Source of the DNA: a virus
Taxonomy: Duplodnaviria > Heunggongvirae > Uroviricota > Caudoviricetes
IMG/VR virus record: IMGVR_UViG_3300042256_000013
Span: 1-64,000 of that record
Length of the DNA: 64,000 nt
Direction: 5' to 3' (one strand)
The notes under the pieces were generated by a model. It worked only from the letters and a program-made list of their open reading frames with translations. It ran no database searches and was not told the DNA's origin. A program made the position numbers and the translations under genes. Position 1 is the first letter of the stretch, and each line of letters opens with the position of its first letter. Below, piece by piece: positions 1 to 64,000 of the stretch.

Positions 1-78
1 TAAAAGTCAAGTACTTTTATTCTGCATAAAGTATTTTTCGGACTAATCTTAAAGTACTTAAATCCTTCGTGTAACGCT

Positions 79-279
79 CTATGAGCGGCGTACAGTACAG
101 CCTGACCCGCCATACTCTACCTCATAGCTGCCGCCTACCGTGAGCTTGTCAAGGGCGTTACGCATGAGGCGTTGCTTCTTATCGCCTACAGGTATCTGAG
201 ATAGTACTGACTTGATAGCCTCATCAGTACTGTTCACCTCTGCGACTACAGCACCGAGGCAACCAATGATAGTGAACAT
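79..279 (-). CDS. hypothetical protein (66 aa)
   Basis: ORF in minus-strand early-gene block; no recognisable domain. Confidence 0.35.
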   Translation of the reverse strand: MFTIIGCLGAVVAEVNSTDEAIKSVLSQIPVGDKKQRLMRNALDKLTVGGSYEVEYGGSGCTVRRS

Positions 280-349
280 GTTTAGTACTCCTATAAAAGA
301 ATAAGCCCCGCAATGATAGCAGGGCTGTAGAGTACTGTCAAGTACTTTG

Positions 350-661
350 TTAGTAGTTATCGTACACTACTTCATGGCGTATGCTGACCAGGTAATCATT
401 TACATGGAATGGCTTGAGCACATAGGAGCTAGGCACTGAACATGTGGATTGTGCCTCCAGTTCTTTAGTGTATTGTTCTTCAATCCATTCCATCCATTCT
501 ACACCATCAGCATCATCAGATCTAATACCTGCTGTTGCCATGATCATCATTAACGCGATGGCTTTTGGTGCATCAGTATTGACCAGATTGATTCTGGTGT
601 CAAGTACTGAGAAACCATATTGATTAATGGTAACGTGAACGAACGGAGTAGATGTAGCCAT
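350..661 (-). CDS. hypothetical protein (103 aa)
   Basis: Minus-strand ORF with balanced composition; no domain recognised. Confidence 0.45.
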   Translation of the reverse strand: MATSTPFVHVTINQYGFSVLDTRINLVNTDAPKAIALMMIMATAGIRSDDADGVEWMEWIEEQYTKELEAQSTCSVPSSYVLKPFHVNDYLVSIRHEVVYDNY

Positions 662-721
662 GATGAATCTCCTGATTAAGAGAGGGAAGCGGTATTGCTT
701 CCCGATGTGTTTAATATACTA

Positions 722-991
722 CTATTCAGCGGAGGCCGCAAGTACTTTTAACTTATTTTTTAACTCAGGAGTTTTGAACGTATGAACAATGACATTGCCG
801 TTAACATCTTTGATAGTATACAGACCATCAGTACTAAGTTTAACAAAGTAGTCTGGTTCACATGCATCTTCGTCACGCTGGATAGCATAGTACTCCAGTA
901 CTGAATCTTTATCTTCTTCTTGAAGTGTATCCATGTAATCCTGGATAGAGTCCTGGCCGAAGAGTTTTCTAATCATAGTTTGTACTTTCAT
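722..991 (-). CDS. hypothetical protein (89 aa)
   Basis: ORF preceded by GAGGAACGAAAC-ATG and the conserved leader repeat plus promoter at 1040-1165. Confidence 0.5.
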   Translation of the reverse strand: MKVQTMIRKLFGQDSIQDYMDTLQEEDKDSVLEYYAIQRDEDACEPDYFVKLSTDGLYTIKDVNGNVIVHTFKTPELKNKLKVLAASAE

Positions 992-1039
992 GTTTCGTTC
1001 CTCGTGTTGGTTTATGTGTTAAGTATACGTGTACCCGTG

Positions 1040-1127
1040 AGATAACGCAAGTACTATTACGTTTTAATTTATATTATTTTTTGGACGGATCTTGCCACCC
1101 TATAGGGTTAGTGCGTTTCGCCGCATT
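1040..1127. repeat. conserved leader repeat (ggacggatcttgccaccctatagggttag...), copy 1
   Basis: Near-identical copies at 3047-3150, 4505-4650, 11640-11730, 12790-12925, 15230-15330 and 17990-18110; contains 10-bp palindrome CCCTATAGGG. Confidence 0.7.
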
Positions 1128-1165
1128 GATAGTACTATAACAAAAGGGCTAACCGAAGTCAACCC
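1128..1165 (-). promoter_or_regulatory. sigma70-type promoter (TTGACT-N17-TATAGT-like) embedded in hairpin AAAGGGCTAACCGAAGTCAACCCCTTTTT
   Basis: -35 inside GGG...CCC hairpin followed by T-run, giving a composite promoter/terminator; the element recurs at least 12 times. Confidence 0.55.
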
Positions 1166-1174
1166 CTTTTTGAA

Positions 1175-1372
1175 TTAAAAATCGCAATGCACGGCGTCAG
1201 CACCCTGGCCATGCGGGAACAACTGATTTTGTACTTCGTCAAATACATCTTGATAAACGCTGGCGTTTTCTTTAGAGTATTCGCCAATGACGCGAGACAT
1301 AGCCTCATCGATGCCCAGGTGTTTCTTTGCCAGGACGTTGTTCGCGAGTTGCTGGATTCTTTCAGTAGCCAT
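1175..1372 (-). CDS. hypothetical protein (65 aa)
   Basis: GGAGAGTACAACA-ATG; promoter TTGACA-17-TATAAT at about 1400-1432 directly upstream. Confidence 0.5.
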   Translation of the reverse strand: MATERIQQLANNVLAKKHLGIDEAMSRVIGEYSKENASVYQDVFDEVQNQLFPHGQGADAVHCDF

Positions 1373-1399
1373 TGTTGTACTCTCCGTTGTTTCAGTACT

Positions 1400-1432
1400 G
1401 ATATTATATGATAGGGGCTAACTTATGTCAAC
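1400..1432 (-). promoter_or_regulatory. consensus sigma70 promoter TTGACA-N17-TATAAT (minus strand)
   Basis: revcomp reads ggggTTGACAtaagttagcccctatcaTATAATatcagtactg; the -35 lies in a terminator-like hairpin. Confidence 0.6.
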
Positions 1433-1443
1433 CCCTAATTTGA

Positions 1444-1749
1444 TTAAATCAATCCAGCTTCTTGAGCTACCTGGTAAGCAGGGGAACCGTAAGCAGGTTC
1501 GATCTCTTGCCAGTGTTCAGAGTTCAACGTGCCACCAGCGTCAAGATGTTTCTCGATTGCCATGATACGGCGATTCTGTTTCTCGCGAACGGCCTGTTGT
1601 TCATGCAGTTCATGAGTAGTTTCATAGGAAGTATTCAGAGCAATGCGACGGCCTGAATTAATATCCTGAGCAACGATGAAAAAGCTGGAGGCTTCTTGCC
1701 CGTTGTATTCTACTACATCATGACGAATAAAGAGAGTGAATCTGGACAT
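1444..1749 (-). CDS. hypothetical protein (about 101 aa; start moved to MSRFTLF)
   Basis: Track ORF 1444-1812 would overlap promoter 1783-1815; internal ATG has AGGAAACAAATCAA-ATG. Confidence 0.45.
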   Translation of the reverse strand: MSRFTLFIRHDVVEYNGQEASSFFIVAQDINSGRRIALNTSYETTHELHEQQAVREKQNRRIMAIEKHLDAGGTLNSEHWQEIEPAYGSPAYQVAQEAGLI

Positions 1750-1827
1750 TTGATTTGTTTCCTGTTCTTGTTTCAGTACTGATAGAATACTAAAAGGGGC
1801 TAACATTGTCAACCCCTTATTTGAATT

Positions 1828-2670
1828 TTATGCTTTATCTACTAACATAGTTGCCAGGTTCCACAACTTAGAGTTAAAGTCTAAGTTCTTATCAATGTTA
1901 GTTACGCCACGTGTTGTACGGCGGCGGCCTGATTCGCTACGGCCTGTTTGACCGCCTGCCATTACGTTTTGTTGTACAACATTAAACGTGCTGTAAAGGC
2001 TGTTGCTGTTACGGTCAGTACTGTTAATAATGCGAGTACTCAGCAACTGTTGAGGATCATACAGGTAGTTAATCTTTTCGCCGGGTTCTGGATAACCTTC
2101 TTTAGCGATGTAGCCAGCAATGGCAAACGCTTTACGTTGATCATCGGTTAACTGAATCCGGGACATTTCACCTTTGTAACGTTCGATGAGGTCAAAGTCT
2201 TTAACCACTTCGCATACACCTTCGATCACATCATCCATGATGTTATTACCTTTGTGATAGATCTTAGTGTTGCTTTGGGTGTTACCCATTACCAGACCAT
2301 TCGCACAAACGAAACGGAATTGACCGCTGATCAACTGATAGGCACTTGTGCCATCGTTGGCATTAAGAAGGATGATCTCGTTTGCTTCACCTTCTTTCAT
2401 ACCAGGTTGACGGAAACGCAACATATGTTTCGTGAATTCGCGTTTTGATGCATCGCGTACACGTGCCTGAGTGGCGAACATCGGGAAATAGTTTTCCTTC
2501 GCGAGACGATCAATCACGTCGATAGTTGGCACTGGTGCGAAACGGTTAGAACGTGATTCGTGTGCATCGTACTGGAATACGGACGGCACCACTTCCTGGA
2601 GTTCTGTTCTGGTCAGTGGACGGTTTTCTTTGATTGCTTTACCGTTGATACCCTGATACATTTTAATCAT
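1828..2670 (-). CDS. conserved hypothetical phage protein (280 aa)
   Basis: Long ORF with coding-like composition; no catalytic motif recognised. Confidence 0.6.
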   Translation of the reverse strand: MIKMYQGINGKAIKENRPLTRTELQEVVPSVFQYDAHESRSNRFAPVPTIDVIDRLAKENYFPMFATQARVRDASKREFTKHMLRFRQPGMKEGEANEIILLNANDGTSAYQLISGQFRFVCANGLVMGNTQSNTKIYHKGNNIMDDVIEGVCEVVKDFDLIERYKGEMSRIQLTDDQRKAFAIAGYIAKEGYPEPGEKINYLYDPQQLLSTRIINSTDRNSNSLYSTFNVVQQNVMAGGQTGRSESGRRRTTRGVTNIDKNLDFNSKLWNLATMLVDKA

Positions 2671-2746
2671 GATTCGTTCCTCTTGTTGGTGTAAGGTAAT
2701 AGTACTGGATTCTGTTTATGTTGTCCAGTACTATTTTAAAGTTTAA

Positions 2747-3004
2747 TTACTCGATACCGCCATCGACAGGCCAGTGATCACGAATGAATTTAGAACTGGA
2801 TGGAACGGCGGTCAGGTTACAAGTCAAGCGATCCGCATGTAAATGTGCCAGGCGTTCAGTACTGAATTCTACGCCAGGTTGATAGTGCTGGCGGTTGTTG
2901 TCGTGGTCAAGTGCAACCACGTCGAATGGGCGTTCAGCAGTTTTAGACCAGACTCTTACTTTAAATTCAATTCCAGATTTAGCCATCTTTAAACCCTCAA
3001 TCAT
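2747..3004 (-). CDS. hypothetical protein (85 aa)
   Basis: ORF downstream of leader repeat copy at 3047-3150 and promoter at 3150-3190. Confidence 0.5.
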   Translation of the reverse strand: MIEGLKMAKSGIEFKVRVWSKTAERPFDVVALDHDNNRQHYQPGVEFSTERLAHLHADRLTCNLTAVPSSSKFIRDHWPVDGGIE

Positions 3005-3046
3005 GTTTCGATATAAAAGATTATACAGTACTGTATGATTAACGCA

Positions 3047-3150
3047 AGGACTATTTGCATTTTAATTTAAAAATATTACTGTACAGATATACAGTACTAA
3101 ATCCACCAGCTACATTATGCCACCCTATAGGGTTAGTCCATTTCGCTGGA
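3047..3150. repeat. conserved leader repeat copy 2
   Basis: tgccaccctatagggttagtccatttcgctggagtgattaca shared with other copies. Confidence 0.65.
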
Positions 3151-3196
3151 GTGATTACATAATAACAAAAATGGTTGAACGTGTCAACCATTATTT

Positions 3197-3316
3197 TTAA
3201 AATATCCAGGCCAGTACAGCGACAAGAATAATTAATTGAAATACTCTTGTGGTCTTTGCCCCTTCGGTGTATGCTGGATTCACCGTTGTGTATTGGACAA
3301 CATGTTTCTGTTTCAT
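3197..3316 (-). CDS. small tail-anchored membrane peptide (39 aa, MKQKHVVQYTTVNPAYTEGAKTTRVFQLIILVAVLAWIF)
   Basis: CAGGAGAATCAA-ATG Shine-Dalgarno; own promoter at about 3338-3372; below the 60-aa cutoff of the ORF track. Confidence 0.35.
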   Translation of the reverse strand: MKQKHVVQYTTVNPAYTEGAKTTRVFQLIILVAVLAWIF

Positions 3317-3383
3317 TTGATTCTCCTGTTTCAGTACTGATATGATAGCAAAAGGGCTTAACCTTAGTCAAGCCCTATTTTGA

Positions 3384-4055
3384 TTAAAGATAAGTTACTG
3401 ATGGTTCACGAGGATCTTCTTCAAATTCCATCTCATTTGCGATGATAGTTTCTTTAACTTGTGCATCTTCAAGCAGATGATAGTAATGCGTATCCAGGTC
3501 TGAATAGTACGCCTTACCTTGTTCAGTGACAAAATAGTCAATTTCTTTTTCTAATTCTTCATACAAAGATTGTTGCTTTGGTGAAAGGTTAACGTAATAC
3601 TCACCGGACATAACAGCATCAGTTGTATTGTAATGAACATATCGTGAAGAGTTATCACGCTTAACACTACATGTTATTTCTTTTATAAGAATGTATTCAT
3701 GTAATGCACGATAATATGTCCAGCGTTTTTGAGCACGTAAAAACTTCTCAATATCGACGTTACTTGCGGTGAAGCTCGCACCATCACCTTGCGAACAAAA
3801 ACCACAATACTGAGATTCTACACCTTCGAACCCGGTATTTTTCATAATTTCATGGTGGCGGTATTCGATGAAGTCATTCCAGTTTTGATCTTCAACGTTA
3901 ATGTCTCTGTTAAGATCAAGGGCTTTAGCTTGTTGTTGTTCGTTCAGTTCTTCAAATTTCATGGCAGTATCTCGCTTAATTGGATAAGCACCATTGCTTA
4001 CCTCATATAAAAGATTATACAGTACTGAATTGATAATGCAAGTACTATTACACAA
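3384..4055 (-). CDS. hypothetical protein (223 aa)
   Basis: Long minus-strand ORF; no domain recognised. Confidence 0.55.
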   Translation of the reverse strand: MCNSTCIINSVLYNLLYEVSNGAYPIKRDTAMKFEELNEQQQAKALDLNRDINVEDQNWNDFIEYRHHEIMKNTGFEGVESQYCGFCSQGDGASFTASNVDIEKFLRAQKRWTYYRALHEYILIKEITCSVKRDNSSRYVHYNTTDAVMSGEYYVNLSPKQQSLYEELEKEIDYFVTEQGKAYYSDLDTHYYHLLEDAQVKETIIANEMEFEEDPREPSVTYL

Positions 4056-4117
4056 TTAATGTACTAACGTGATATTAATACATTAATTGTGTGGATACCA
4101 GGTATCCACACTTGCTA

Positions 4118-4438
4118 TTATGCTTCTAACGCAGAACCAGTAAGTTTATAATGTTCACGTGCGGCACGAACATCATCAATAGTTTTGAAACGGCTTACAA
4201 AGAAACCTTTACCTAACGTGATAGTCCTGGTACGATTGGCAATAGATTGTTCAGATTCATCCATGTACTTAGGAGTTTTAGGAGACATATCAGCCGGGAA
4301 GTACACGACATATGCCATCTCAGTATAATCAACAATTACGCCGTGAGTAAATTCACCGTAATTATGAACTACTACAGTACCTAAAGCTAAAGGAAGTCTC
4401 TGAGTAGTTGCAACGTTTACAGTAGTGGATTTAGTCAT
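4118..4438 (-). CDS. hypothetical protein (106 aa)
   Basis: ORF preceded by leader repeat copy 3 at 4505-4650. Confidence 0.5.
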   Translation of the reverse strand: MTKSTTVNVATTQRLPLALGTVVVHNYGEFTHGVIVDYTEMAYVVYFPADMSPKTPKYMDESEQSIANRTRTITLGKGFFVSRFKTIDDVRAAREHYKLTGSALEA

Positions 4439-4504
4439 TTGTATGCTCGCTTAATTAATAGTTGTTTCGTTTAAGAGACACTATCTTGTCTCGATGTGTA
4501 TATA

Positions 4505-4650
4505 CTAACATAATCCATTCTCAATGCAAGTACTATTACGTTTTAATTTATAATTATTTTACTGTACAAATATACAGTACTTTTCAGTACTAAAAGCAAT
4601 TGGACGCAACTTGCCACCCTATAGGGTTAGTCCATTTCGCTGGATTGAAT
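4505..4650. repeat. conserved leader repeat copy 3
   Basis: caagtactattacgttttaatttat... ttgccaccctatagggttagtccatttcgctgg. Confidence 0.65.
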
Positions 4651-4694
4651 ACAGTATAGCAAAAAGGGCTAACCGAAGTCAACCCTTTATTTTC

Positions 4695-4916
4695 TTAATG
4701 CATCAGTTTATGGTCATTCAGCACGAATGGTGTAGCGAGTGCGTTTACCTTATCGGCGATGATCTGGCGGTCGAATCCACCCAGGAAGTTATTCAAAAGC
4801 AAACAACCCATCATGTTAAACTGATTGAACTCGCAGATCTGACCGATCACTTCATTCGCTTTCTTATCAGTGTCCGATGGTTCAGCGAACAATTCTCTTA
4901 ACATATCTTCCAGCAT
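4695..4916 (-). CDS. hypothetical protein (73 aa)
   Basis: AATGAGGGTAATATA-ATG; promoter/terminator element at 4935-4985; preferred over overlapping plus ORF 4611-4901. Confidence 0.45.
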   Translation of the reverse strand: MLEDMLRELFAEPSDTDKKANEVIGQICEFNQFNMMGCLLLNNFLGGFDRQIIADKVNALATPFVLNDHKLMH

Positions 4917-4997
4917 TATATTACCCTCATTGGTTTCAGTGTTTCAGTACTGATATTATTGATCAAGGGCTAACATATGTCAACCCCTGGATTTAAA

Positions 4998-5351
4998 TTA
5001 ATTGCAGTGATATACAATCTTTACTGGAATGTATACGCCGCCTTTAGGGATAGCGGTTTTCATGGTAAACATAGTTCCCGCTTGTTCGATAGTACCAGTA
5101 TCATTACGATAAACATTGTAATCTTTCCAGAATTGTGTAACTGGTAAATCAGTGTCGTTAACCTGTACTTCGATCACTGGTTCAGTTACAGTAATCTGAA
5201 TGATATGTGCCTGGTCAGAACTATCATTTACTTTTTGATAGTCACCATTACCAGTACCTTGATACAGTGTATAGCTACTGCAAGTATGGATTGAAGTACT
5301 TGCATTTGCGAATGAAGCCACCAGCAAGCCTAACAAAAGAAACTTTCTCAT
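4998..5351 (-). CDS. secreted protein with signal peptide (MRKFLLLGLLVASFANAST..)
   Basis: Start moved to MRKF with AACGGAGTAAATGAA-ATG; N-terminal hydrophobic signal peptide. Confidence 0.5.
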   Translation of the reverse strand: MRKFLLLGLLVASFANASTSIHTCSSYTLYQGTGNGDYQKVNDSSDQAHIIQITVTEPVIEVQVNDTDLPVTQFWKDYNVYRNDTGTIEQAGTMFTMKTAIPKGGVYIPVKIVYHCN

Positions 5352-5421
5352 TTCATTTACTCCGTTGTGTTCAGTACTGATAGGATAGCAAAAAGGGCTA
5401 ACCGAAGTCAACCCTTTATTG

Positions 5422-6138
5422 TTATTTAATTTGTCGTAATTCTCTTATTGCATCAAAGATGTATTCAATTATAATCGCTGGATTATTTGATTCTTTTTCT
5501 GCGTCAACGGTTACATCATACAAGTGTTGTACAGCTTTACGAAATACTGTAGGATGAAAACGTTGTACGATTCTAACTAATCCATCCACATATTCTGGAT
5601 TAGATTTAAAGATTCTGGACCATATATGCTTTAATGAATCTAGTTGTGATGGTGCTTCTGTTACAGTACTTTCATCTAATGATATAGCATTCATGATAGC
5701 TTCATACTTATCATAAACATCATCAGATTCAGTATTATGTGCAGCGTGAAATACTGCCTTGACAGCGTTTTGATATTGTGCTGGTGGCACTGATTTTAAT
5801 GCGGTTGTAATATCTTTGATGTAAGTTGGTTCACCGTCGAACATCTTACGCAAGACATTAGGCAGATCTTTGATCGATGGTTCAGGAGTTGGTTCACGCC
5901 CTGGCATAAGTCCTAATGATTTAAAGTACTTTAACTTTTCATCTGGATTCATGCGAGAAGTATCAACGCCCTGAGATGGCATTGTGTTTAGCTTGCCTTG
6001 TAAGCCTGTTCCCTGGTTACGTGATCCGCGATCACCTTGTCCAGCGTCATGACTGTTTGATCTACGATTGCTATTACTCCACTTGTCAGCGTGTCCAGCT
6101 ATAGTAGCATCTTTTTTGTTAACGAATTTTCCTGGCAT
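5422..6138 (-). CDS. hypothetical protein (about 238 aa)
   Basis: Start moved to MPGKF (TAGGGGATTTTTTATT-ATG). Confidence 0.5.
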   Translation of the reverse strand: MPGKFVNKKDATIAGHADKWSNSNRRSNSHDAGQGDRGSRNQGTGLQGKLNTMPSQGVDTSRMNPDEKLKYFKSLGLMPGREPTPEPSIKDLPNVLRKMFDGEPTYIKDITTALKSVPPAQYQNAVKAVFHAAHNTESDDVYDKYEAIMNAISLDESTVTEAPSQLDSLKHIWSRIFKSNPEYVDGLVRIVQRFHPTVFRKAVQHLYDVTVDAEKESNNPAIIIEYIFDAIRELRQIK

Positions 6139-6192
6139 AATAAAAAATCCCCTATGACTATAGTTTATTATAATCATATTTAGGGGATTATG

Positions 6193-6435
6193 TCAACGTC
6201 TAGCAATGAAATTGTTATATTGTTCATGAGTCATAAGGTTAAGTTTGCCATTGTCAATAACAATACGTTCTTTGTGCGATACTTCAATAACACTGAACAA
6301 TCCACAATTTAATTTTCTTGATCGCAGTTGTCCACCTTTGTATTCTTTCACAATACGAATAGCTCTGTCAAGTACTTTAGTCTGAGCTTTAAAATGAATT
6401 CGTAATTGTGTATCATCAATCATAATCTTTTTCAT
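6193..6435 (-). CDS. hypothetical protein (80 aa)
   Basis: ORF only. Confidence 0.4.
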   Translation of the reverse strand: MKKIMIDDTQLRIHFKAQTKVLDRAIRIVKEYKGGQLRSRKLNCGLFSVIEVSHKERIVIDNGKLNLMTHEQYNNFIARR

Positions 6436-6484
6436 TGATACACCCCATGAATAAACAGGGGGCTATAACCCCCTGTATCGCATT

Positions 6485-6850
6485 TTAAGAGACTTTCTGT
6501 AAATGCTGAGCCAGTCGTACCGCCGTCATACTGCGACGCCAGGAAACGCGTACAGACTTGTTATTTGGCGTTTTTAGTACTTGCTCGCCGATGATTGTGC
6601 CTGGACGGTTCAACGTTGCTTTCGCTTCTTGTGGCGATACATCGTGATGTAAGTCAGCCAGTGTCTGTTGTGCTTCTGCGATCTGTTCATCGCTGGCATC
6701 AGCAGGAAGTACAATGTACGGTTCAGATACTACCGCCCAACGTTCACCTTTAGGTGCAGTACTGCCAAAGTCTTTTACTTTCGCGTTCAGCGTAGTAGCT
6801 GCTTCACGTGCAAGTGTTCTGGTTGCGAAAAAGATAGTTTCGATAGTCAT
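6485..6850 (-). CDS. hypothetical protein (about 121 aa)
   Basis: Start at MTIETIFF with AGAGGAAAGACACA-ATG; locally GC-richer. Confidence 0.45.
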   Translation of the reverse strand: MTIETIFFATRTLAREAATTLNAKVKDFGSTAPKGERWAVVSEPYIVLPADASDEQIAEAQQTLADLHHDVSPQEAKATLNRPGTIIGEQVLKTPNNKSVRVSWRRSMTAVRLAQHLQKVS

Positions 6851-6913
6851 TGTGTCTTTCCTCTTTGTTGTCGATGAATGTACTATATCAGTACTGAAAT
6901 TACATTGCAAGTA

Positions 6914-7366
6914 CTATTTGCGTTTCAAGAATAAGTCTTTATACTCTTGTAAATCATCTAGTACTTCTTTCTTTGCTTTATCATCTTTTTGCATGTTAGC
7001 AACAATTTCAATTGCTTCCATCGCCATATTATGCCTGGCAATATCTTTACCAACATGACCAGCCAATAAAGATGAAGGGAAATGTGTAGAATCTTCTATT
7101 AATAAGAAGTCTACCATATCCTGTACAGTCATTAAAGCCCGTGGTGTAGTGGCGGCTTTATGTTCTTTCCACTTAGCATGAGCACGTTTCCATAACCGCA
7201 AACGTAAGGGATCTTTTGGCTTTGGCGGTTTAGAACCACTCATAAACGCTTGAAAGTAATCCTCTTCAGTTTTGAACTTGCGTTTAGCACCGAACTGAAC
7301 ATTACGTGCGATCTCGTCAAGGGCAGTCGCTATGCCTTTCGGCAACCCTATTGTATTCTGACCCAT
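6914..7366 (-). CDS. hypothetical protein (150 aa)
   Basis: ORF; basic/charged composition. Confidence 0.5.
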   Translation of the reverse strand: MGQNTIGLPKGIATALDEIARNVQFGAKRKFKTEEDYFQAFMSGSKPPKPKDPLRLRLWKRAHAKWKEHKAATTPRALMTVQDMVDFLLIEDSTHFPSSLLAGHVGKDIARHNMAMEAIEIVANMQKDDKAKKEVLDDLQEYKDLFLKRK

Positions 7367-7367
7367 T

Positions 7368-7697
7368 CTATCTTACCTTACATTGTACCACAAAAGAATC
7401 ATAACTGTTTTGTGCCATAAAGTCAATCTCTTTATCATTAAAAGTTTTCAGTACTTGAGTTACTTTTAAACCTTCAATGAATGTTTCTGTTTGAAGATTG
7501 TCAAGTAACTTTGTTTTTTCTATACTGAACCAACGTTCTTGTTTTAATTGATCCGGCATAAAGTACTGATACTTACAATCAAATGTCGGATCTTTAAATG
7601 GATTCAACTTGTCAATAACTTCTGGCGTAATAGATTTACCAATTACTACACCACATGCTAATGCTGCCAGTACTATCAATGTGGTTGATTTTTTCAT
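7368..7697 (-). CDS. secreted protein (signal peptide MKKSTTLIVLAALACGVVIG)
   Basis: N-terminal signal peptide; start moved to MKKST. Confidence 0.45.
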   Translation of the reverse strand: MKKSTTLIVLAALACGVVIGKSITPEVIDKLNPFKDPTFDCKYQYFMPDQLKQERWFSIEKTKLLDNLQTETFIEGLKVTQVLKTFNDKEIDFMAQNSYDSFVVQCKVR

Positions 7698-7698
7698 T

Positions 7699-8064
7699 TT
7701 ATTTGTACTCACAATTTGCAATAATCAGTCCACCAGAACCCTTTTCATCTGTAAGGAATAATTTTGTATATGTATACATATTCCTTACCTCACGTACTTC
7801 CATATTATTAATGGTATCATACTTTTTAAGAGAAAGCAAAGTACTTTTAGTTGTTTTAAAATCAAAACGATACGGTGATAGATCCTGGTGGTAATCGCGA
7901 ACTTCACAAGTGACTTCTTTATCAGTACTTGCTTCAACCTTTGCACCATTAACATTAACATTAACAACTGGTGCAGCCGATTTGACAGATTCAACATATC
8001 GACCAATATTAAGACCAGCGGCAAATGAGAATAAAGCAATTGAGATAACAGCGATTCTTTTCAT
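7699..8064 (-). CDS. secreted protein (signal peptide MKRIAVISIALFSFAAG)
   Basis: Signal peptide; AGTACT-class promoter at 8086-8127 upstream. Confidence 0.5.
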   Translation of the reverse strand: MKRIAVISIALFSFAAGLNIGRYVESVKSAAPVVNVNVNGAKVEASTDKEVTCEVRDYHQDLSPYRFDFKTTKSTLLSLKKYDTINNMEVREVRNMYTYTKLFLTDEKGSGGLIIANCEYK

Positions 8065-8085
8065 TTCAATTCTCCGTTAAGTTCA

Positions 8086-8127
8086 TGTAATCATTATAAA
8101 GTACTCGCATTCAACTTGCAAGTACTT
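8086..8127 (-). promoter_or_regulatory. AGTACT-flanked promoter: agtacTTGCAA-N17-TATAAT
   Basis: revcomp reads aagtacTTGCAAgttgaatgcgagtactTTATAATga; same architecture at 10730-10775, 11232-11268, 13583-13625 and 14243-14285. Confidence 0.55.
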
Positions 8128-8137
8128 TTGATAATGT

Positions 8138-8263
8138 TTACTCGCAAGTATAACTATTACCAGCTTGCCCCATTATTACGGTGCAGTTATTATTTGAATA
8201 CGTGACGGTGCAACCACGTAAAGCAAAGAATACTACAACGGCGATAAGTACGAACTTAAGCAT
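8138..8263 (-). CDS. small signal-peptide/lipoprotein-like peptide (41 aa, MLKFVLIAVVVFFALRGC...)
   Basis: ATG overlaps upstream stop (ATGCTTAA); hydrophobic N-terminus followed by Cys; not in ORF track. Confidence 0.3.
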   Translation of the reverse strand: MLKFVLIAVVVFFALRGCTVTYSNNNCTVIMGQAGNSYTCE

Positions 8264-8459
8264 TTGCGATCTCCAGATCTTTCTGATATTCAGCTAACCA
8301 CTTTTTTTCATGGCGTTTGAACATTGCAGCGAGGGATAACTCAATCTCACGCAATTCACCATGAGGGAATTTTCTTGCCCAACGCAAGTACTTCGCACGT
8401 GATTCACGGCTATCTCTTGCTACCATAAGTGAAAAAGGAATTGCTGGCCCGATAAACAT
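8256..8459 (-). CDS. hypothetical basic protein (about 67 aa)
   Basis: Start moved to MFIGPA with GAGGGTAAAGAAT-ATG. Confidence 0.35.
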   Translation of the reverse strand: MFIGPAIPFSLMVARDSRESRAKYLRWARKFPHGELREIELSLAAMFKRHEKKWLAEYQKDLEIANA

Positions 8460-8554
8460 ATTCTTTACCCTCTTACGATTCCCCATGAACCGGTTCGATA
8501 TAAAGATAGTACTACACCAAAAACCAAAAAGCAACTAATTTTTTATCTTTACAT

Positions 8555-8588
8555 GTAAAAAAGCCCCGACTAAGCGGGGCTTGATTTT
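8555..8588 (-). terminator. intrinsic terminator (AGCCCCGACTAAGCGGGGCT + T-run)
   Basis: GC hairpin flanked by A-run and T-run; downstream of 8603-9481. Confidence 0.7.
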
Positions 8589-8602
8589 AACAGTACTTTG
8601 TG

Positions 8603-10046: not shown

Positions 10047-10154
10047 TACTACATAGACGCGAGAAAGCGGGAACCCAAGGGGGTGGCAAAATGTATTCAT
10101 ATGAAATAGTACTGTACATAAAAACAGTACTGGATATTTCACCAGTACTTTGCT

Positions 10155-10703: not shown

Positions 10704-10779
10704 TTGAATTACCTTGTCAATAAAGTAACTTCATTATAAAGTACTCGCATTCCGCTTGCAAGTACTTTTGATAATGATT

Positions 10780-11187: not shown

Positions 11188-11274
11188 TTGTAAATCCTCT
11201 TAATTAATGGTTATTGCGTTTCAGTAAGTTCATTATATAGTACTCGCTACCGATTGCAAGTACTATTAATGGAT

Positions 11275-13560: not shown

Positions 13561-13633
13561 TTTCACTTCCTCGCTTGCTTAAGATAACTCATTGTAAAGT
13601 ACTCGCGAATGCAATGCAAGTACTTTCATTAAA

Positions 13634-58675: not shown

Positions 58676-58706
58676 AAAAGGCACTCCTATGAGTGCCTTT
58701 CTTTTT
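58676..58706. terminator. bidirectional intrinsic terminator (AAAAAGGCACTCCTATGAGTGCCTTTCTTTTT)
   Basis: Hairpin flanked by A-run and T-run. Confidence 0.75.
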
Positions 58707-59226
58707 GGTATACTATTGCTCTTGATTTTTGAAACTTACATTGATGTACTTCTTTCCATATTGAAGGATCTATAACATGTGAATTAGGTCGTATCAATAT
58801 TAGAGTGTCAGTGTATGTGCTCAGTGCATATAATAGTTTCTGTCTGTATGATTCAGGTACTAAATCGAATGCATAACTACAAATAATTACATCATACTGT
58901 TTTTCAAATATACAATTAAAATCAGCTATATCTTCAAATGAATATGGATAGCATACAAATCCAGTTTCTTCTGTATATCTATCGTGCATGTACTTATCAG
59001 CACCTTCAATATCGGATACACCGCAATGCTTAAGTATGTTGCTGACAATACCATTGCCGCAAGCTAAATCCAGTACTGACGCATTCTCAGTGAAGTACTG
59101 ATAGAATGAATTCATCAAGCAATCATTTACATAATCCTGGTGTGGATTCTCATATGTAGCTTGTGTATTAGGATCTTGATAGTACTCTTGAACGCCAAGC
59201 GTTCGGTACTGTTCAGTTATTTTCAT
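58687..59226 (-). CDS. SAM-dependent methyltransferase (class I)
   Basis: Motif I LDLACGNG; acidic post-I residue. Confidence 0.6.
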   Translation of the reverse strand: MKITEQYRTLGVQEYYQDPNTQATYENPHQDYVNDCLMNSFYQYFTENASVLDLACGNGIVSNILKHCGVSDIEGADKYMHDRYTEETGFVCYPYSFEDIADFNCIFEKQYDVIICSYAFDLVPESYRQKLLYALSTYTDTLILIRPNSHVIDPSIWKEVHQCKFQKSRAIVYQKERHS

Positions 59227-59949: not shown

Positions 59950-60134
59950 GGTATTTTACCTTTATGGTTTATTGAGTTTCTTTGTTACATCATTGTACTA
60001 CAATTTTATGGCATACGCAACAGGATTTTCACCTGTATCCCCAGAACCTCTCTGAGCGAACCAGTATCCTATCTAATCTATTATATCCCTTCTTTGGACA
60101 ATACGCAAGATTAAACATTAGACGATACGTATAG

Positions 60135-60207
60135 TGGAGCTATGCGGATTTGAACCGCAGACCTACTACGTGCAAGGCAGTTGCTCTACCAACTGAGCTA
60201 TAGCCCC
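60135..60207 (-). tRNA. tRNA-Ala (anticodon UGC)
   Basis: GGGGCTATAGCTCAGTTGGTAGAGC...CTTGCAC...GGTTCAAATCC cloverleaf; close to enterobacterial tRNA-Ala; CCA not encoded. Confidence 0.8.
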
Positions 60208-60289
60208 TTATCACGTCCTTACTTATACCGAGTCGGCTATCGGGCAGACGTGATACACCCCGAAGCACATTGGCTTTGTATAAGTTTGA

Positions 60290-60362
60290 TGCGGAGGGTG
60301 GATTTGAACCACCGACCTCCAGGTTATGAGCCTGGCAAGCTGACCATGCTGCTCTACTCCGC
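60290..60362 (-). tRNA. tRNA with CAU anticodon (Met or Ile-lysidine)
   Basis: GCGGAGTAGAGCAGCATGGTCAGC...CTCATAA...GGTTCAAATCCACC; CCA not encoded. Confidence 0.7.
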
Positions 60363-60495
60363 ATTTCCTATGTGATTATTATACCACAATTTTTTGAGCC
60401 GTTCCAAATTTTTTCAATCTTTTTTTTTCAATTTCAGTACTGAGCGGCTATCTCTCAGTTCATGACAACATTATACCAGAAAATTTCTGGTCGTT

Positions 60496-60840
60496 TCAAC
60501 TTTTTTCGAAGATTTTTTTCTTACAATCTTCTAACGCGTCAATCGCTTCTTCGATTGTACTCAGTAATCCATAATGGTTTTCACGAAAGAAACGTGAATT
60601 ATTCTTTGTTAAGGCATACCCTAACAATTTACCATGATTGATAACACGAGTAATTGATAATGAATATGATGCTAACGAAATTAAGTACTGGTCATATTCA
60701 GATTTTGTTACAACTTCATCAATATCAAAATCGTCATCGATTTTGTATCCATGAAGTCTATTATTTTCGTCAATACCATAAACAGCAAAACTAACATCCC
60801 AATTGATTTTCATCAACATATCAAATATTTTTTGTTTCAT
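60496..60840 (-). CDS. hypothetical protein (about 114 aa, start MKQKIF)
   Basis: Track ORF N-terminus overlaps the tRNA at 60858-60933, so an internal start was chosen. Confidence 0.45.
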   Translation of the reverse strand: MKQKIFDMLMKINWDVSFAVYGIDENNRLHGYKIDDDFDIDEVVTKSEYDQYLISLASYSLSITRVINHGKLLGYALTKNNSRFFRENHYGLLSTIEEAIDALEDCKKKIFEKS

Positions 60841-60857
60841 ATTTATAGTACCATCAA

Positions 60858-60933
60858 TGGTGGTCAATACTGGGTTCGAACCAGTGACGCCGACATTATG
60901 AGTATCGTGCTCTACCAACTGAGCTAATTGACC
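60858..60933 (-). tRNA. second tRNA with CAU anticodon (Met/Ile2), CCA encoded
   Basis: GGTCAATTAGCTCAGTTGGTAGAGC...CTCATAA...GGTTCGAACCC...ATTGACCACCA. Confidence 0.7.
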
Positions 60934-61127
60934 TTTGGATAATTCTGCACATTATGTGCAAGTGCATTGATCGATGTACGAGCGTTACGAATTGCAGTTT
61001 CAGCATTAGACTGATAATGATTAGTAACTTGCTGTACTGAGCTATCAACAATTATATACTGCTGTAGCTCGTGTTGTAAAGCCATTAATTCACTTTCAAT
61101 CTGGACTAACCGTTCAGCACTGATCAT
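60924..61127 (-). CDS. small coiled-coil protein (about 67 aa, start MISAERL)
   Basis: AGGGGAAAATC-ATG. Confidence 0.4.
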   Translation of the reverse strand: MISAERLVQIESELMALQHELQQYIIVDSSVQQVTNHYQSNAETAIRNARTSINALAHNVQNYPKVN

Positions 61128-61318
61128 GATTTTCCCCTGTTTTGATGATATTTCACAAAAGATAACCAGCATTTTGACCAGTACTCAGATTCTTTGAGAT
61201 TTTCAATTAAATCACGATGAATAGCACAATCTGGTACATTTTCAATGGTGGCATTTTCAACTTCAGACACCAGTGATTGTAACAATTCGGTAATTTCAAC
61301 CAAACGTTCTTTATTCAT
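61124..61318 (-). CDS. small protein (about 64 aa, start MNKERLVEITELL)
   Basis: GTTAGAGGTTCACATA-ATG. Confidence 0.4.
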   Translation of the reverse strand: MNKERLVEITELLQSLVSEVENATIENVPDCAIHRDLIENLKESEYWSKCWLSFVKYHQNRGKS

Positions 61319-61395
61319 TATGTGAACCTCTAACTTAAAACGTGCAATCATTATTACACGTAGCCTTGAGCGTGTCAAGGACTTTTTGGGTAAGA

Positions 61396-61472
61396 TGGTG
61401 GGCTTTCAGGGATTCGAACCCTGGACAAACCGATTAAGAGTCGGCTACTCTAACCAACTGAGTTAAAAGCCC
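61396..61472 (-). tRNA. tRNA-Lys (anticodon CUU), CCA encoded
   Basis: GGGCTTTTAACTCAGTTGGTTAGAGT...CTCTTAA...GGTTCGAATCCCTGAAAGCCCACCA. Confidence 0.7.
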
Positions 61473-61825
61473 ATATCCTTAACTGCTCTCGTCAAAATGT
61501 AATTGAAGCGACAGCAATCATAAAATGTTAAATCGAACCGTTGTTCTTTCACTATATCACGATATTCTACAATACTTAGTTTTTCTTCTCCTGAATCATC
61601 TAAGTTCAGTAGTAAACCAAAGTCAATGACACATACTAAAATATGAAGACCACCTTCATCATCAAAGTATCCAAGTCTTAGTAATGGTACTGGAGAATCT
61701 TCTGCGAAGTACATAATGTAAGTTGTACCATTATAATCTATAGTACAATCTTCATAACGTAAGAAATGATGATAGTTCATATCAAAGAACTTCGCTATAT
61801 CCTTAAGTGAGTTTAGTTCATTCAT
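61463..61825 (-). CDS. hypothetical protein (about 120 aa, start MNELNSL)
   Basis: AAGGAAATATAT-ATG; the upstream part of the track ORF is tRNA-Cys antisense. Confidence 0.45.
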   Translation of the reverse strand: MNELNSLKDIAKFFDMNYHHFLRYEDCTIDYNGTTYIMYFAEDSPVPLLRLGYFDDEGGLHILVCVIDFGLLLNLDDSGEEKLSIVEYRDIVKEQRFDLTFYDCCRFNYILTRAVKDMGF

Positions 61826-61857
61826 ATATATTTCCTTATATATACAGTTCATTTTTG

Positions 61858-61934
61858 AGCGTGGAGAGGGATTTGAACCCCCGACTTTACGGATTTGCAA
61901 TCCGTTCCAATTGGCCTGACTCTGGCATCCACGC
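61858..61934 (-). tRNA. tRNA-Cys (anticodon GCA), long D-loop
   Basis: GCGTGGA acceptor, ACGGATTGCAAATCCGT anticodon arm, GGTTCAAATCC T-arm. Confidence 0.6.
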
Positions 61935-61941
61935 TGAATTC

Positions 61942-62589
61942 TTAAAAATACAAATGTGCTTGAATATCGGGTGTAGCTTGCACTAATGAACCTAATTGCA
62001 TAATCTTATTAACAATTTCGTACACCATCATACATTCATCCAATTCAAGTACTAAACCATCAGTTGTTATTCTTTGAAAATGAGATTCTTCTGAATCTGG
62101 AAGTACTTTGTATGTTGTATTTAATTTTGTTATTATACCCTTTTCATGACCTACTATAGTTCCATAGGTATCACGTACCGGAACATATGTTGATTCTACC
62201 CATTCATTATTTGAACCCGCATTTATAACACTAAATGCACCATTAGAAAATTTCATAACATCAACAACTGAAGTGTAATTTACAGGGATTTTGTTATTGC
62301 GGAATCCTACTGGAGATGCATCAAACGGCAGATCTTCCAAAACAGTAAACTTCATAAGCATACTAAATGTAAATTCATTTGTTTCATTATTCTTTTTTAT
62401 TTTTAAATTAGAATCTTCGCAAATATATACCATCTCAGAGGTAGTACTGCTTTTAGAATCTATTGAAAATTTATCCAAATTATCAGCAAATGTTCTAACT
62501 ATATTATTTCTATGTATTAATCCATCATCCATTTCTTTTTCAAATCCTTTAAAACTGCTTCTTTTATTCTTTGAATATTGGTTAAACAT
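61942..62589 (-). CDS. hypothetical protein (215 aa)
   Basis: ORF only. Confidence 0.5.
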   Translation of the reverse strand: MFNQYSKNKRSSFKGFEKEMDDGLIHRNNIVRTFADNLDKFSIDSKSSTTSEMVYICEDSNLKIKKNNETNEFTFSMLMKFTVLEDLPFDASPVGFRNNKIPVNYTSVVDVMKFSNGAFSVINAGSNNEWVESTYVPVRDTYGTIVGHEKGIITKLNTTYKVLPDSEESHFQRITTDGLVLELDECMMVYEIVNKIMQLGSLVQATPDIQAHLYF

Positions 62590-63080
62590 TCAAAAGGTAA
62601 CACATCTTCAAGTACTGTCATTTGTTGGAACCACTGTTCTTCAGTACTGAAATAATGAAAAGTTTTGTACGTGATGTGTTTTTCTGGTACACCAACTAAA
62701 GAGTTATATTGGTTTGACATAAAAGTTGACATAAGTGGATCATTAAATGTATCCCCAAGCTCTTTTATAATTTGGTTGAATGTAGAATATTCACCAATTC
62801 GTGCTTCATATGCTACTTCTGCTAATGTATCAAGGTAAGCATCTTGAATAACATCACGAACTTCAATTGTATTATTCGTAATACCCAAAACATATCCACC
62901 TTCTGAACTAAGTTTAATAGTTCCATCAGATTCAATTTTATATGAATATAATTCAAATGACTCATTTAAAATTCTGGATAATTGATCAAGTATTTCTATT
63001 GTTAATTCTTCAGCGTTCGTAACTACTTTCATATTCTTCTCTACTTGCAAAACCGCCACAAAAAAATGAAATGTCTTCAA
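62517..63080 (-). CDS. hypothetical protein (187 aa; true start may be MKVVTNAEEL at about 63032), paralog of 63010-63570
   Basis: Shared C-terminal motif EEQWFQQMTVLEDVLPFE versus AEWFQKMTVHDNILPYE. Confidence 0.5.
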   Translation of the reverse strand: MKTFHFFVAVLQVEKNMKVVTNAEELTIEILDQLSRILNESFELYSYKIESDGTIKLSSEGGYVLGITNNTIEVRDVIQDAYLDTLAEVAYEARIGEYSTFNQIIKELGDTFNDPLMSTFMSNQYNSLVGVPEKHITYKTFHYFSTEEQWFQQMTVLEDVLPFECLTNIQRIKEAVLKDLKKKWMMD

Positions 63081-63570
63081 TTATCTTGTTGCGAATAGTA
63101 TTAATATTCCAGGTTGATTCATATGGTAAAATATTATCGTGTACAGTCATTTTTTGAAACCACTCAGCTTCCGAATAGAAGTACTGATAGATTAAAGGAG
63201 ATGCACGTCTCGGTGGTTCACTAAACAAAAACATAGGTGGTGGATATTGTACATCCTTATACTTTTCATTATGTTCTCTAGCTAATTCTTGATACTTATC
63301 TTCCAATAGTACAGTAGCATACAAATCAGCTATTTCTATAGAATTTTTTAGTTCTTCAAGTTTATAACTACATGTTGAATTAAAAATTTCTAACAGTTTA
63401 TGAGAAGAATAATGTCCAGAATATATACATATAGATTCTCTTCCTGCACTATATGTATATTTTGTTCTATCAAGAACATTTTCAGCAATATCAGATAATA
63501 AAGCAGCAGATGTGTCTAATGAGTTATCTTTAATAATTGTCATATAAAAATAGGGAGCATAGCTCCCCAA
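63010..63570 (-). CDS. hypothetical protein (186 aa), paralog of 62517-63080
   Basis: Terminator-like hairpin GGGAGCTATGCTCCC immediately upstream of the ATG. Confidence 0.5.
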   Translation of the reverse strand: MGSYAPYFYMTIIKDNSLDTSAALLSDIAENVLDRTKYTYSAGRESICIYSGHYSSHKLLEIFNSTCSYKLEELKNSIEIADLYATVLLEDKYQELAREHNEKYKDVQYPPPMFLFSEPPRRASPLIYQYFYSEAEWFQKMTVHDNILPYESTWNINTIRNKIIEDISFFCGGFASREEYESSYER

Positions 63571-63579
63571 TTATTCCAT

Positions 63580-63756
63580 CAGTTTGAATGAGTGTTATCA
63601 GTTTCTGGTTCAACTGGCGTTTCATCAGTACTTGCATCATCTGCACCATTTGGATCAGCAGGTATACCAACATCAAGTACTGAATTCTCAGGCTCTTTGT
63701 TGAGTGCGGCAAATATTGTTTTGATCCATGACCAAATTTTACTTAATATATTCATG
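63580..63756 (-). CDS. small protein (about 58 aa, MNILSKIWSWIKTIFAALNKEPENS..., acidic C-terminus)
   Basis: TTTAGGAGTACTTAC-ATG strong RBS; different frame from, and preferred over, track ORF 63530-63712. Confidence 0.4.
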
Positions 63757-63837
63757 TAAGTACTCCTAAAATGAAGCAGAATTTTCTCTGCTAATTATTT
63801 AACTTTAGTGTACCTACAATGAATGTAAATTTTATTT

Positions 63838-64000
63838 TCCAGATGTAACTGGAGTATTCGCAGCAGGAACACAACTAACAGAAGTATCCCATGTTACACT
63901 ATTAGACACAACATAACAGTTAGCGTCCGGTTGTGTAACCTTTTTCATGTAGTATACTTCTTTACCAGCAGATCCAATGATCTGAAGTTTACCAGCATTC
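63838..64000 (-). CDS. 3' end of a minus-strand gene running off the window (...NAGKLQIIGSAGKEVYYMKKVTQPDANCYVV...)
   Basis: Open frame entering from beyond 64000 with a stop near 63840. Confidence 0.4.

Follow-up and report, generated by a model that had tools for sequence, protein, structure and literature searches.

Iteration of the palindrome AGTACT in a Rak2-like jumbo phage and its relatives

The 64,000 nucleotides (nt) analysed here (the window; positions 1 to 64,000 of the IMG/VR record IMGVR_UViG_3300042256_000013) form the left end of the roughly 360-kb genome of a Rak2-like jumbo phage that is Mimasvirus-like. In them the self-complementary hexamer AGTACT is found 279 times, as against 18.4 +/- 4.2 copies (maximum 29) in dinucleotide-preserving shuffles, an excess of about 15-fold and a density of 4.4 per kb. 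The reading that we prefer, and hold tentatively, is that AGTACT is a lineage-specific 'highly iterated palindrome', a DNA-level signal that is kept by selection close to saturation along the whole chromosome and read by a phage enzyme, probably an orphan methyltransferase. A search of the accessible literature finds no mention of AGTACT for jumbo or Rak2-like phages, and the genome papers of phages CBB and RaK2 describe promoters and methyltransferases and not this word (CBB: PMC5259590). Within that searchable literature its genome-wide iteration in Rak2-like phages is previously undescribed.

Abundance and specificity of AGTACT

AGTACT is the commonest of all 4,096 hexamers in the window, and the runner-up among palindromes has 59 copies. 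A sequence-only reading of the same DNA had placed the word far above chance, which is borne out more strongly than it reported, AGTACT coming top both against shuffled sequence and against the other palindromes, and its view that such a density implies function is judged right. A by-product of codon usage or of dinucleotide composition is ruled out by both types of shuffle, that by dinucleotides given above and that by synonymous codons described below. Between sites the gaps are near-exponential at the local scale of the window (coefficient of variation 0.86-0.95), the longest being 1.6 kb.

The word is sharply defined. Exact AGTACT stands 13x over base composition, and its 18 single-mismatch neighbours average 1.6x; variants at the outer positions (xGTACT, AGTACx) reach 1.6-3.4x over expectation and those at inner positions 0.65-1.8x, and the transition neighbours are undepleted (AGTATT 1.0x, AATACT 1.45x). 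Preference extends beyond the hexamer in a mirror-symmetric way, as T(-4/-3), C(-1), AGTACT, G(+1), A(+3/+4). The favoured 8-mers are CAGTACTG (n=56) and AAGTACTT (n=33), and GAGTACTC is avoided (n=2).

Palindromes are otherwise scarce in this DNA. Of the 64 hexamer palindromes 24 are absent from the window; among tetramers GCGC has 0 copies where about 80 are expected and CTAG 36 where 220 are, GATC being at expectation (209 vs 220). Samples of 36-41 kb from Mimasvirus and Eneladusvirus lack 28-30 of the hexamer palindromes, more distant clades lack 24-27 and a Vibrio outgroup lacks 4.

Distribution in the clade, its hosts and outgroups

No phage record matches the window at the DNA level, and its Mimasvirus-like placement is made because of protein identities and collinear gene order. 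The sigma70-like factor encoded at 46704-47699 (minus strand) has 93% identity with its homologue in Erwinia phage Kaldavass, 74% with those of Cronobacter phage GAP32 and Pectobacterium phage CBB, 70% with that of Serratia phage BF and 31-42% with those of Hallingskeid/XaC1, Salmonella phage Munch, E. coli phage 121Q and Klebsiella phage RaK2. The closest relatives, Kaldavass and XbC2, share a collinear gene order with the window, whose coordinates run about 750 nt ahead of those of the Kaldavass record.

In every Rak2-like phage sampled (9 phages; 2.4-5.6 per kb) AGTACT is the top or second hexamer, with densities per kb of 3.3 and 5.6 in Kaldavass, 3.2 in XbC2, 3.5 in CBB, 2.5 in GAP32, 3.8 in BF, 3.7 in Hallingskeid, 2.6 in Munch, 2.9 in 121Q and 2.8 in RaK2. 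The Kaldavass core at 180-230 kb, which encodes the DNA polymerase, terminase, capsid and baseplate, has 122 sites where 16.6 are expected, and these are evenly spread through replication and structural genes, with 8-15 in every 5 kb. Extrapolated, these densities suggest roughly 1,000 AGTACT sites per genome, or one per 230-400 bp.

E. coli K-12 is depleted for the word (6 in 100 kb vs 23 expected), which makes the window about 73x denser, and so is T4 (7 in 50 kb vs 17 expected). Since T4 is depleted, the enrichment is not something that the T4 superfamily, or phages of enteric bacteria, share in general. Vibrio phage 2.275.O, the most distant relative found, has 6 AGTACT vs 13 expected and little palindrome avoidance, and a metagenomic outgroup contig has 15 vs 6.9 expected; both outgroups carry a divergent form of a nuclease considered below, and in neither is an alternative iterated palindrome found. 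Since these outgroups are without strong enrichment, strong AGTACT iteration is a derived trait of the Rak2-like phages of Enterobacterales.

Sites in coding sequence, their conservation and their symmetry

By our own rough heuristic gene calls (113 open reading frames, ORFs), 169 of the 279 sites (61%) lie wholly within ORFs, at 3.3 per kb, and 108 lie between them, at 8.4 per kb, or 7.4 per kb when a tandem array near 19 kb is left out. All three frames are used, with 83 sites as AGT-ACT, 59 as xxA-GTA-CTx and 27 as xAG-TAC-Txx, and there is no bias of sites in position along the window ORFs. Synonymous-codon shuffles give 43 +/- 6 coding sites (maximum 59) against the 169 seen, a 4-fold excess from a control that already inherits the codon bias made by the motif. 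Ser-Thr dipeptides are written AGT-ACT in 83 of 135 cases (61%, expected 14%), and the motif fills 52% of the x-Val-Leu and 45% of the [K/Q/E]-Tyr-x opportunities. The dipeptides themselves are in 1.6x excess (Ser-Thr 135 vs 84 expected, Val-Leu 149 vs 95), and the reversed ones are at expectation (Thr-Ser 82 vs 84, Leu-Val 98 vs 95). AGTACT iteration thus biases protein sequence through dipeptide use.

Codon-aligned orthologous genes, with all hexamers as controls, retain AGTACT at 48% vs 27% in Kaldavass, 46% vs 24.5% in XbC2, 25% vs 11% in CBB, 17% vs 9% in BF and, with a weaker excess, 14% vs 10% in GAP32. Retention is thus 1.4-2.3x that of control hexamers, and relatives hold as many sites or more in the same columns. 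Single sites seem to be under some constraint, with over half replaced in time, and it is the density that appears to be maintained, because site matches exceed controls while the relatives' counts are equal or higher.

For the flanks, 1,663 sites were pooled and each locus was turned to follow its gene direction, the genes running mostly one way. Left-flank enrichments follow the complemented mirror of the right with r = 0.92, the uncomplemented control giving -0.73. C(-1)/G(+1) has a frequency of about 0.42, T(-3/-4)/A(+3/+4) about 0.4, and G(-1)/C(+1) is avoided at about 0.07. Such mirror symmetry fits a two-fold symmetric reader of duplex DNA, and strictly a strand-specific reader that uses both strands alike would fit it as well. 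Because the flanks are mirror-symmetric even with loci oriented by gene, a cause at the level of transcripts or codons is disfavoured. Pair distances, taken over 1,542 sites, form a flat distribution that is broken at 18, 20 and 21 nt by hairpin or LexA-like pairs and promoter pairs, and there is no 10-11 nt helical phasing or clustering beyond the 18 and 20/21-nt pairs.

A promoter-registered subset

A minority of the sites is held in register with promoters. About 15-17 promoters read AGTAC-TTGcwt-N16-17-TAtAAT, the final T of AGTACT doubling as the initial T of the -35 hexamer, and several of these have a second AGTACT that stops 1-2 nt short of the -10 hexamer. All these 15-17 promoters belong to minus-strand genes, from which they lie some 60 nt upstream, and nearly all are within 1-17.7 kb. 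A start-site class, TATAAT-atc-AGTACT-gaaac, has 3-5 copies.

8093..8126, minus strand: type dual-site early promoter, AGTAC-TTGCAA-gttgaatgcgAGTACTt-TATAAT, with AGTACT at -40..-35 and -19..-14, about 60 nt upstream of a small gene
10733..10766, minus strand: dual-site early promoter, AGTAC-TTGCAA-...cgAGTACTt-TATAAT
11232..11264, minus strand: dual-site early promoter with a 16-nt spacer
13590..13624, minus strand: dual-site early promoter, AGTAC-TTGCAT-...cgAGTACTt-TACAAT
4014..4046, minus strand: dual-site early promoter, AGTAC-TTGCAT-tatcaattcAGTACTg-TATAAT
1394..1408, minus strand: start-site class, TATAAT-atc-AGTACT-gaaac, with AGTACT at about -3..+3
1775-1780, 3333-3338, 4946-4951 and 14715-14720: further start-site-class copies of AGTACT

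Among 77 intergenic sigma70-like matches AGTACT has its A at -40/-39 ten times (P = 4e-7), at -20/-19 seven times (P = 2e-4) and at -3/-2 six times (P = 1e-3), the expectation being 1.1 in each case. The two fixed promoter arrangements that the sequence-only reading had described therefore exist in significant register, although only some 25-30 of the 279 sites stand at the fixed positions (-40, -19, -3). Its placing of AGTACT at promoter cores as a rule does not hold, with most sites inside ORFs and with flanks that, averaged over all sites, are nearly devoid of promoter-like information outside position -1/+1, and its statement that nearly every intergenic region has a copy fits 1-19.4 kb (24 of 27 regions of >=40 nt) and fails beyond (10 of 30), the sum being 34 of 57. 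Of the functions it had proposed, the operator of a phage regulator suits the subset at -40, -19 and -3 and leaves the bulk of the sites unexplained, and for a determinant of the phage sigma there is no evidence linking the motif to the phage sigma factor, the bulk being intragenic and in all frames. Its third proposal, a target of DNA modification, is the one preferred here as a putative role.

The promoter layout is kept in relatives, the first 22 kb of Kaldavass having 13 such promoters and the distant 121Q, whose sigma factor has 31% identity with that of the window, showing the same arrangement as AGTAC-TTGACT-aaatagttcAGTACTga-TATAAT. The RpoD-like promoters of CBB have been described with an 'UP-like element' upstream (PMC5259590), and at the CBB locus this element, upstream of TTGACA, reads AAAAAGTAC. 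The RpoD-like early promoters with this element in CBB and GAP32 (PMC5259590) are of the same class as those of the window, and their published description mentions neither AGTACT, nor a further site at -19, nor an excess throughout the genome. Two promoters of a different kind, TGAAACG-N16-TATAAT at 43440-43484 and 60455-60498 (minus strand), are without AGTACT and correspond to a second type in the CBB and GAP32 papers.

Putative terminal repeat, paired sites and gene layout

Early promoters of the dual-site class fall in what seems, by synteny with CBB, to be one copy of a long terminal repeat, and the window is laid out as follows.

1-19042: putative long terminal repeat copy with small early genes on the minus strand, placed by synteny with CBB
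next, ahead of the block at 19446-26647: non-coding region, 2.1 kb
19446-26647, plus strand: virion-type block of eight tandem paralogous genes, RCC1-repeat beta-propeller alternating with LamG/concanavalin-like
after that block, minus strand: genes of early/middle type, among them those of the sigma factor and of five tRNAs
19033..19064, no strand assigned: conserved block GATATAGCGGAAGGGG-N4-CAGTACT adjoining the array, recognised by synteny
19058..19174, plus strand: perfect tandem array, 11.7 copies of AGTACTGGAT, with 12 AGTACT sites
10108..10131, no strand assigned: AGTACT pair at 18-nt spacing, TACTGTACATAAAAACAGTA, LexA-box-like CTGT-N8-ACAG, one of a small sub-class of pairs

The virion-type block has the highest coding AGTACT density in the window, 6.0 per kb. 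The boundary of the terminal repeat would lie at about 19042/19043, 16 nt from the AGTACTGGAT array, since the annotated 22-kb terminal repeat of CBB, itself placed from read depth, starts inside the block that is conserved at window 19033-19064. This block has the form CAGTACTG-N4-CCCCTTCCGCTATATC at window 19033-19064, at CBB 38075-38110 and at about 18275-18300 in Kaldavass, and it may be an end-recognition site. The array itself is specific to the window, Kaldavass having a single AGTACTG at the syntenic place, and a conserved centromere- or iteron-like element is ruled out for it, as relatives have one site there. A separate 32-nt repeat of about 2.7 copies (consensus TCTAAACGTCTATCCATCCAGAAAGATAGCAG) is present at window 18282-18366, Kaldavass 17511-17601 and CBB 38817-38907, in the large non-coding region just within the putative terminal repeat, and could be an iteron-, origin- or packaging-related element. 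Hairpins followed by T-runs, scored terminator-like, are formed by AGTACT pairs spaced 14-18 nt at 10108-10149, 14701-14720 and 18768-18791, and the pair at 18768 is also found in Kaldavass and CBB.

Five tRNA genes (Ala, Met, Met, Lys, Cys; 60134-61934, minus strand) are interleaved with small ORFs whose ends overlap them, and the order of this cluster is the same in Kaldavass, XbC2, CBB, GAP32 and BF. A 1.3-kb ORF-free stretch at 48641-49923 (minus strand) has a GC content of 44% (window mean 38%) and two strong sigma70-type promoters upstream. It has 84% identity with Kaldavass and XbC2 and 82% with GAP32, the adjoining coding genes having 74% and 60%, and no relative has it annotated. The stretch may encode a large structured non-coding RNA, for which Rfam gives no family at threshold, the sole match being sroH, sub-threshold (26 bits vs 80).

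Candidate reader proteins

Candidate readers were screened in the 64 kb of the window, out of the genome of about 360 kb. One protein of that region stands out as the most conserved, with 60-93% identity across the clade, and its gene is a core gene of the motif-bearing phages.

56781..57359, minus strand: PD-(D/E)XK nuclease of restriction-endonuclease-like fold, 192 aa, phrog_16175 (gp156 in 121Q), with a conserved acidic/lysine catalytic motif and invariant E59, D93, E102 and K104
2481-3532 of the RaK2 locus: PF05869 methyltransferase, with equivalents in 121Q, Hallingskeid and Munch

Further invariant residues of the PD-(D/E)XK protein (H50, H52, C92, C117) could form a metal site. Its gene heads a conserved run of small genes; these operon partners have no family matches, and in a viral structure library the nuclease itself matched only uncharacterised phage proteins. 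Divergent homologues with 32-35% identity are present in the outgroups that have no strong enrichment (the Vibrio phage and the metagenomic contig). The protein is a low-confidence candidate for the AGTACT reader by co-distribution alone. A PF05869 Dam-family N6-adenine methyltransferase, gp447 of RaK2 and gp417 of 121Q, is found in every enterobacterial Rak2-like sub-clade, and in most annotated records (RaK2, K64-1, 121Q, PBECO4, Hallingskeid, Munch and others) its gene is followed by a cytidylyltransferase/nucleotidyltransferase gene.

Other proteins of the window were set aside as readers. The S-adenosylmethionine-dependent (SAM) methyltransferase at 58687-59226 is not of a DNA-methyltransferase family and is not kept in the distant clades. 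The Xre-type helix-turn-helix (HTH) protein at 47923-48153, near the sigma-factor gene, does not co-vary with the motif because it is confined to Mimasvirus. The window yielded no DNA-binding protein that is shared across the clade.

A possible mechanism and its rivals

On the reading preferred here a two-fold symmetric, phage-encoded protein would read AGTACT on duplex DNA with a specificity of restriction-modification grade, an orphan DNA methyltransferase being its likeliest identity. The mark would be about 70x denser on phage DNA than on that of the host and so would label phage DNA as self, and it could also report whether DNA has just been replicated. In the early region of the terminal repeat, where AGTACT lies within sigma70-type promoters at -40, -19 and -3, its occupancy or methylation state would switch the promoters. 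The phage reader, the identity of the methyltransferase, the role in self recognition or replication state and the promoter switching are the parts of this scheme that we infer. Purged palindromes and the zero count for GCGC imply exposure to restriction, and some 1,000 restriction-type palindromes in a genome otherwise purged of palindromes therefore suggest protection by modification. An enzyme of restriction-modification type is favoured over a tolerant binder because of the all-or-none specificity, the outer bias of the near-misses and this palindrome paradox.

Several points weigh against the methyltransferase reading. The screen of the 64-kb window identified no reader protein, the PF05869 methyltransferase is not encoded within the window, and many members of that family are GATC-specific. 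Two other methyltransferases have been rejected as the cognate enzyme, the 5-methylcytosine (m5C) enzyme of the RaK2 gp194 family, which is absent from motif-bearing Eneladusvirus and Yersinia phages, and GAP32_519, which is unique to GAP32 and not clade-wide. The literature searched holds no ScaI digest and no methylome data at AGTACT for the clade, and methylation alone leaves the advantage of a high density unexplained. The self-mark idea draws on the contrast in density between phage and host, where the relatives are sampled as 20-50 kb pieces (36-50 kb for the comparison of densities) and the host is represented by 100 kb of E. coli, from which the natural host may differ, and a biased-repair drive could mimic the conservation of sites. 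A bolder version, distinctly unlikely as it stands, is that a phage with unmodified DNA tells its own chromosome from that of the host by AGTACT density through a reader system, the same mark timing the shut-off of early promoters. The components that act on AGTACT would be the orphan methyltransferase found across the clade and perhaps also the PD-(D/E)XK nuclease or a binding protein, and phage DNA would be spared, repaired, organised or transcribed and host DNA not.

The reader may instead be an abundant dimeric phage protein without enzymatic activity, architectural or 'histone-like' and also a repressor, in the manner of SPO1 TF1 or phi29 p6. It would coat or organise phage DNA in preference, the sites being dense there, and would shut early sigma70 promoters by way of the sites at -40, -19 and -3. 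This seems unlikely, though by no means far-fetched. In its favour are flanks that are mirror-symmetric out to +/-4, a conserved register at -40, -19 and -3 where bound protein would occlude RNA polymerase, two promoter sites 21 bp apart on the same face of the helix, and a density about 73x that of the host sample. Against it, one-mismatch variants are barely enriched, a sharpness atypical of architectural proteins and repressors, the spacing of sites is neither helically phased nor clustered beyond the promoter and hairpin pairs, and the nearby HTH protein occurs only in Mimasvirus, the window holding no clade-wide DNA-binding protein. A neutral drive has about as small a chance as the density-reading idea. 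Here very-short-patch-type repair linked to a methyltransferase would convert near-cognates to AGTACT during the heavy recombination that goes with T4-like replication, with no function served. HIP1 of cyanobacteria, the closest analogue, has been explained in this way by Elhai (PMC4390886), one-nucleotide deviants sit at outer positions as they do for HIP1, and the core genes of the clade include both an orphan methyltransferase and a nuclease of the PD-(D/E)XK fold, which is also that of Vsr, MutH and DpnI. However, the transition neighbours AGTATT and AATACT are not drained, and the distortion of dipeptides and the conserved promoter register point to a selectable effect. Conservation of sites, read as selection for HIP1 (PMC5861425), is seen here too and is not decisive, as drive restores sites as well. 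Highly unlikely is a role for AGTACT as the target of a DNA-processing enzyme of the phage (a nickase or nuclease such as the PD-(D/E)XK protein, a type II topoisomerase or a recombinase) that needs close sites for initiating replication or recombination, for decatenation or for packaging a 360-kb genome. The link is one of co-distribution in the 64 of about 360 kb screened, and divergent homologues of the nuclease occur in the Vibrio phage and the metagenomic contig without strong enrichment. Its fold is common among uncharacterised phage proteins and may be that of a junction resolvase, and cutting at some 1,000 palindromes would fragment the genome unless it were tightly controlled nicking.

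That a host protein of Enterobacterales (SlmA, LexA or another factor) is bound or titrated is a slim prospect. Strong enrichment is seen only in phages of Enterobacterales and is absent in the Vibrio relative, the SlmA consensus GTGAGTACTCAC has an AGTACT core (PMC3020112), CAGTACTG amounts to two outward-facing LexA half-sites, and the 18-nt pairs make CTG-N10-CAG boxes, CTGT-N8-ACAG being found 5 times in the window (1.2 expected). For SlmA, GTGAGTACTCAC must have G1, T2, A4 and G5, with a purine at position 3 (PMC3020112), and yet the phage sites avoid G at position 3 and show no G-T further out. SlmA sites are rejected, as no complete site occurs, the 12-mer is not enriched (30 matches at <=3 mismatches vs 24.7 expected) and G at position 3 is seen in only 6-8%, and so are LexA (SOS) boxes, for which only a few 18-nt pairs qualify (5 in the window, 0-2 per relative locus) and not the bulk. 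Vibrio species also have SlmA and LexA, and host range alone therefore singles out neither. A promoter or operator element as the whole explanation, with abundance reflecting many promoters, has a very remote chance. The significant peaks at -40, -19 and -3, the 24 of 27 intergenic regions with a site in 1-19.4 kb and the CBB 'UP-like element' (PMC5259590) that reads AAAAAGTAC speak for it. They are outweighed by the 61% of sites that are intragenic with no bias along genes, by the 25-30 of 279 in register, by the 10 of 30 regions beyond 19.4 kb and by the late and replication core genes of Kaldavass, which are equally AGTACT-rich. A signal in RNA (AGUACU in transcripts) or in peptides (a Ser-Thr or Val-Leu motif) has next to no likelihood, even with 83 sites that encode Ser-Thr and with Ser-Thr over-represented, for three frames are used, intergenic DNA is denser than coding, reversed dipeptides are at expectation and flanks are mirror-symmetric with loci oriented by gene.

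Why the iteration matters

Highly iterated palindromes have been a puzzle of the cyanobacteria for some thirty years with no agreed function, and a lytic phage lineage offers a more tractable system, as several members can be grown on E. coli K-12, the host is depleted of the word, candidate readers are few and sites can be recoded. The trait is as strong here as in cyanobacteria and spans phages from Klebsiella phage RaK2 to those of Erwinia and Serratia. Density-based self recognition, if true, would give a highly iterated palindrome its first assigned function, and the subject touches on the means by which giant phages with ordinary bases tell self from host DNA and on the timing of early genes in the long terminal repeat. 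In practice restriction mapping, cloning and the prediction of host range against restriction systems have to reckon with some 1,000 sites of ScaI/RsaI type and with the purged palindromes, and AGTACT density could help flag Rak2-like contigs in metagenomes.

Comparison with known systems

Chi, KOPS and DNA uptake sequences are asymmetric, strand-skewed words of 8-12 nt and are 10-20 times sparser. AGTACT resembles them in being dispersed, in a density that seems to be selected while copies turn over and in its presence in coding sequence, and differs in being palindromic and without orientation. Proteins such as TF1 of SPO1 and p6 of phi29 prefer phage DNA, bind the whole genome and shut off early promoters; TF1 recognises hydroxymethyluracil DNA and p6 DNA shape, and neither reads a sharply defined hexamer as here. 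SlmA sites GTGAGTACTCAC (PMC3020112) have an identical central AGTACT, are palindromic and belong to a protein that the hosts encode. In the phage, however, the flanks that SlmA requires are absent or avoided, and an E. coli chromosome has about 50 such sites whereas a phage genome would have about 1,000 AGTACT.

Comparison with the Dam system, known from gamma-proteobacteria and some phages, is closer. GATC is a palindromic methylation target, at about one per 250 bp, that is read for strand and replication state by SeqA and MutH, and a few copies in -35/-10 elements switch promoters (IS10 pIN, P1 cre). AGTACT is like it in density and in a dual distribution, genome-wide and in promoters. GATC has this density at about chance frequency, whereas AGTACT is raised some 15-fold to reach it and is near-absent from the host, and methylation of AGTACT is putative.

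Of all these systems HIP1, together with the alternate highly iterated palindromes of cyanobacteria, comes nearest. HIP1 (GCGATCGC) of cyanobacteria is 15-300x over expectation in and between ORFs and is conserved above controls (PMC4390886, PMC5861425), its deviants are biased to outer positions and orphan methyltransferases accompany it (PMC4390886, PMC5861425), and opinion divides between selection, with a role in nucleoid structure, and repair drive (PMC5861425, PMC4390886). The features of this type that AGTACT shows are its abundance, its presence within and between ORFs whatever the frame, its conservation above controls and its outer-position deviants. Like HIP1 it is a short palindrome in genome-wide hyper-abundance (about 15x), inside and between ORFs, its sites are conserved above controls, its one-nucleotide deviants are biased to outer positions, and its clade carries an orphan methyltransferase, whose pairing with AGTACT is putative. 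It is unlike HIP1 in belonging to a lytic phage lineage, with a host depleted for the word, and not to a cellular genome, and in being a moderate-GC, AT-leaning hexamer where HIP1 is a GC-rich octamer. It also has a conserved promoter-registered sub-population, whereas for HIP1 no role in expression has been found.

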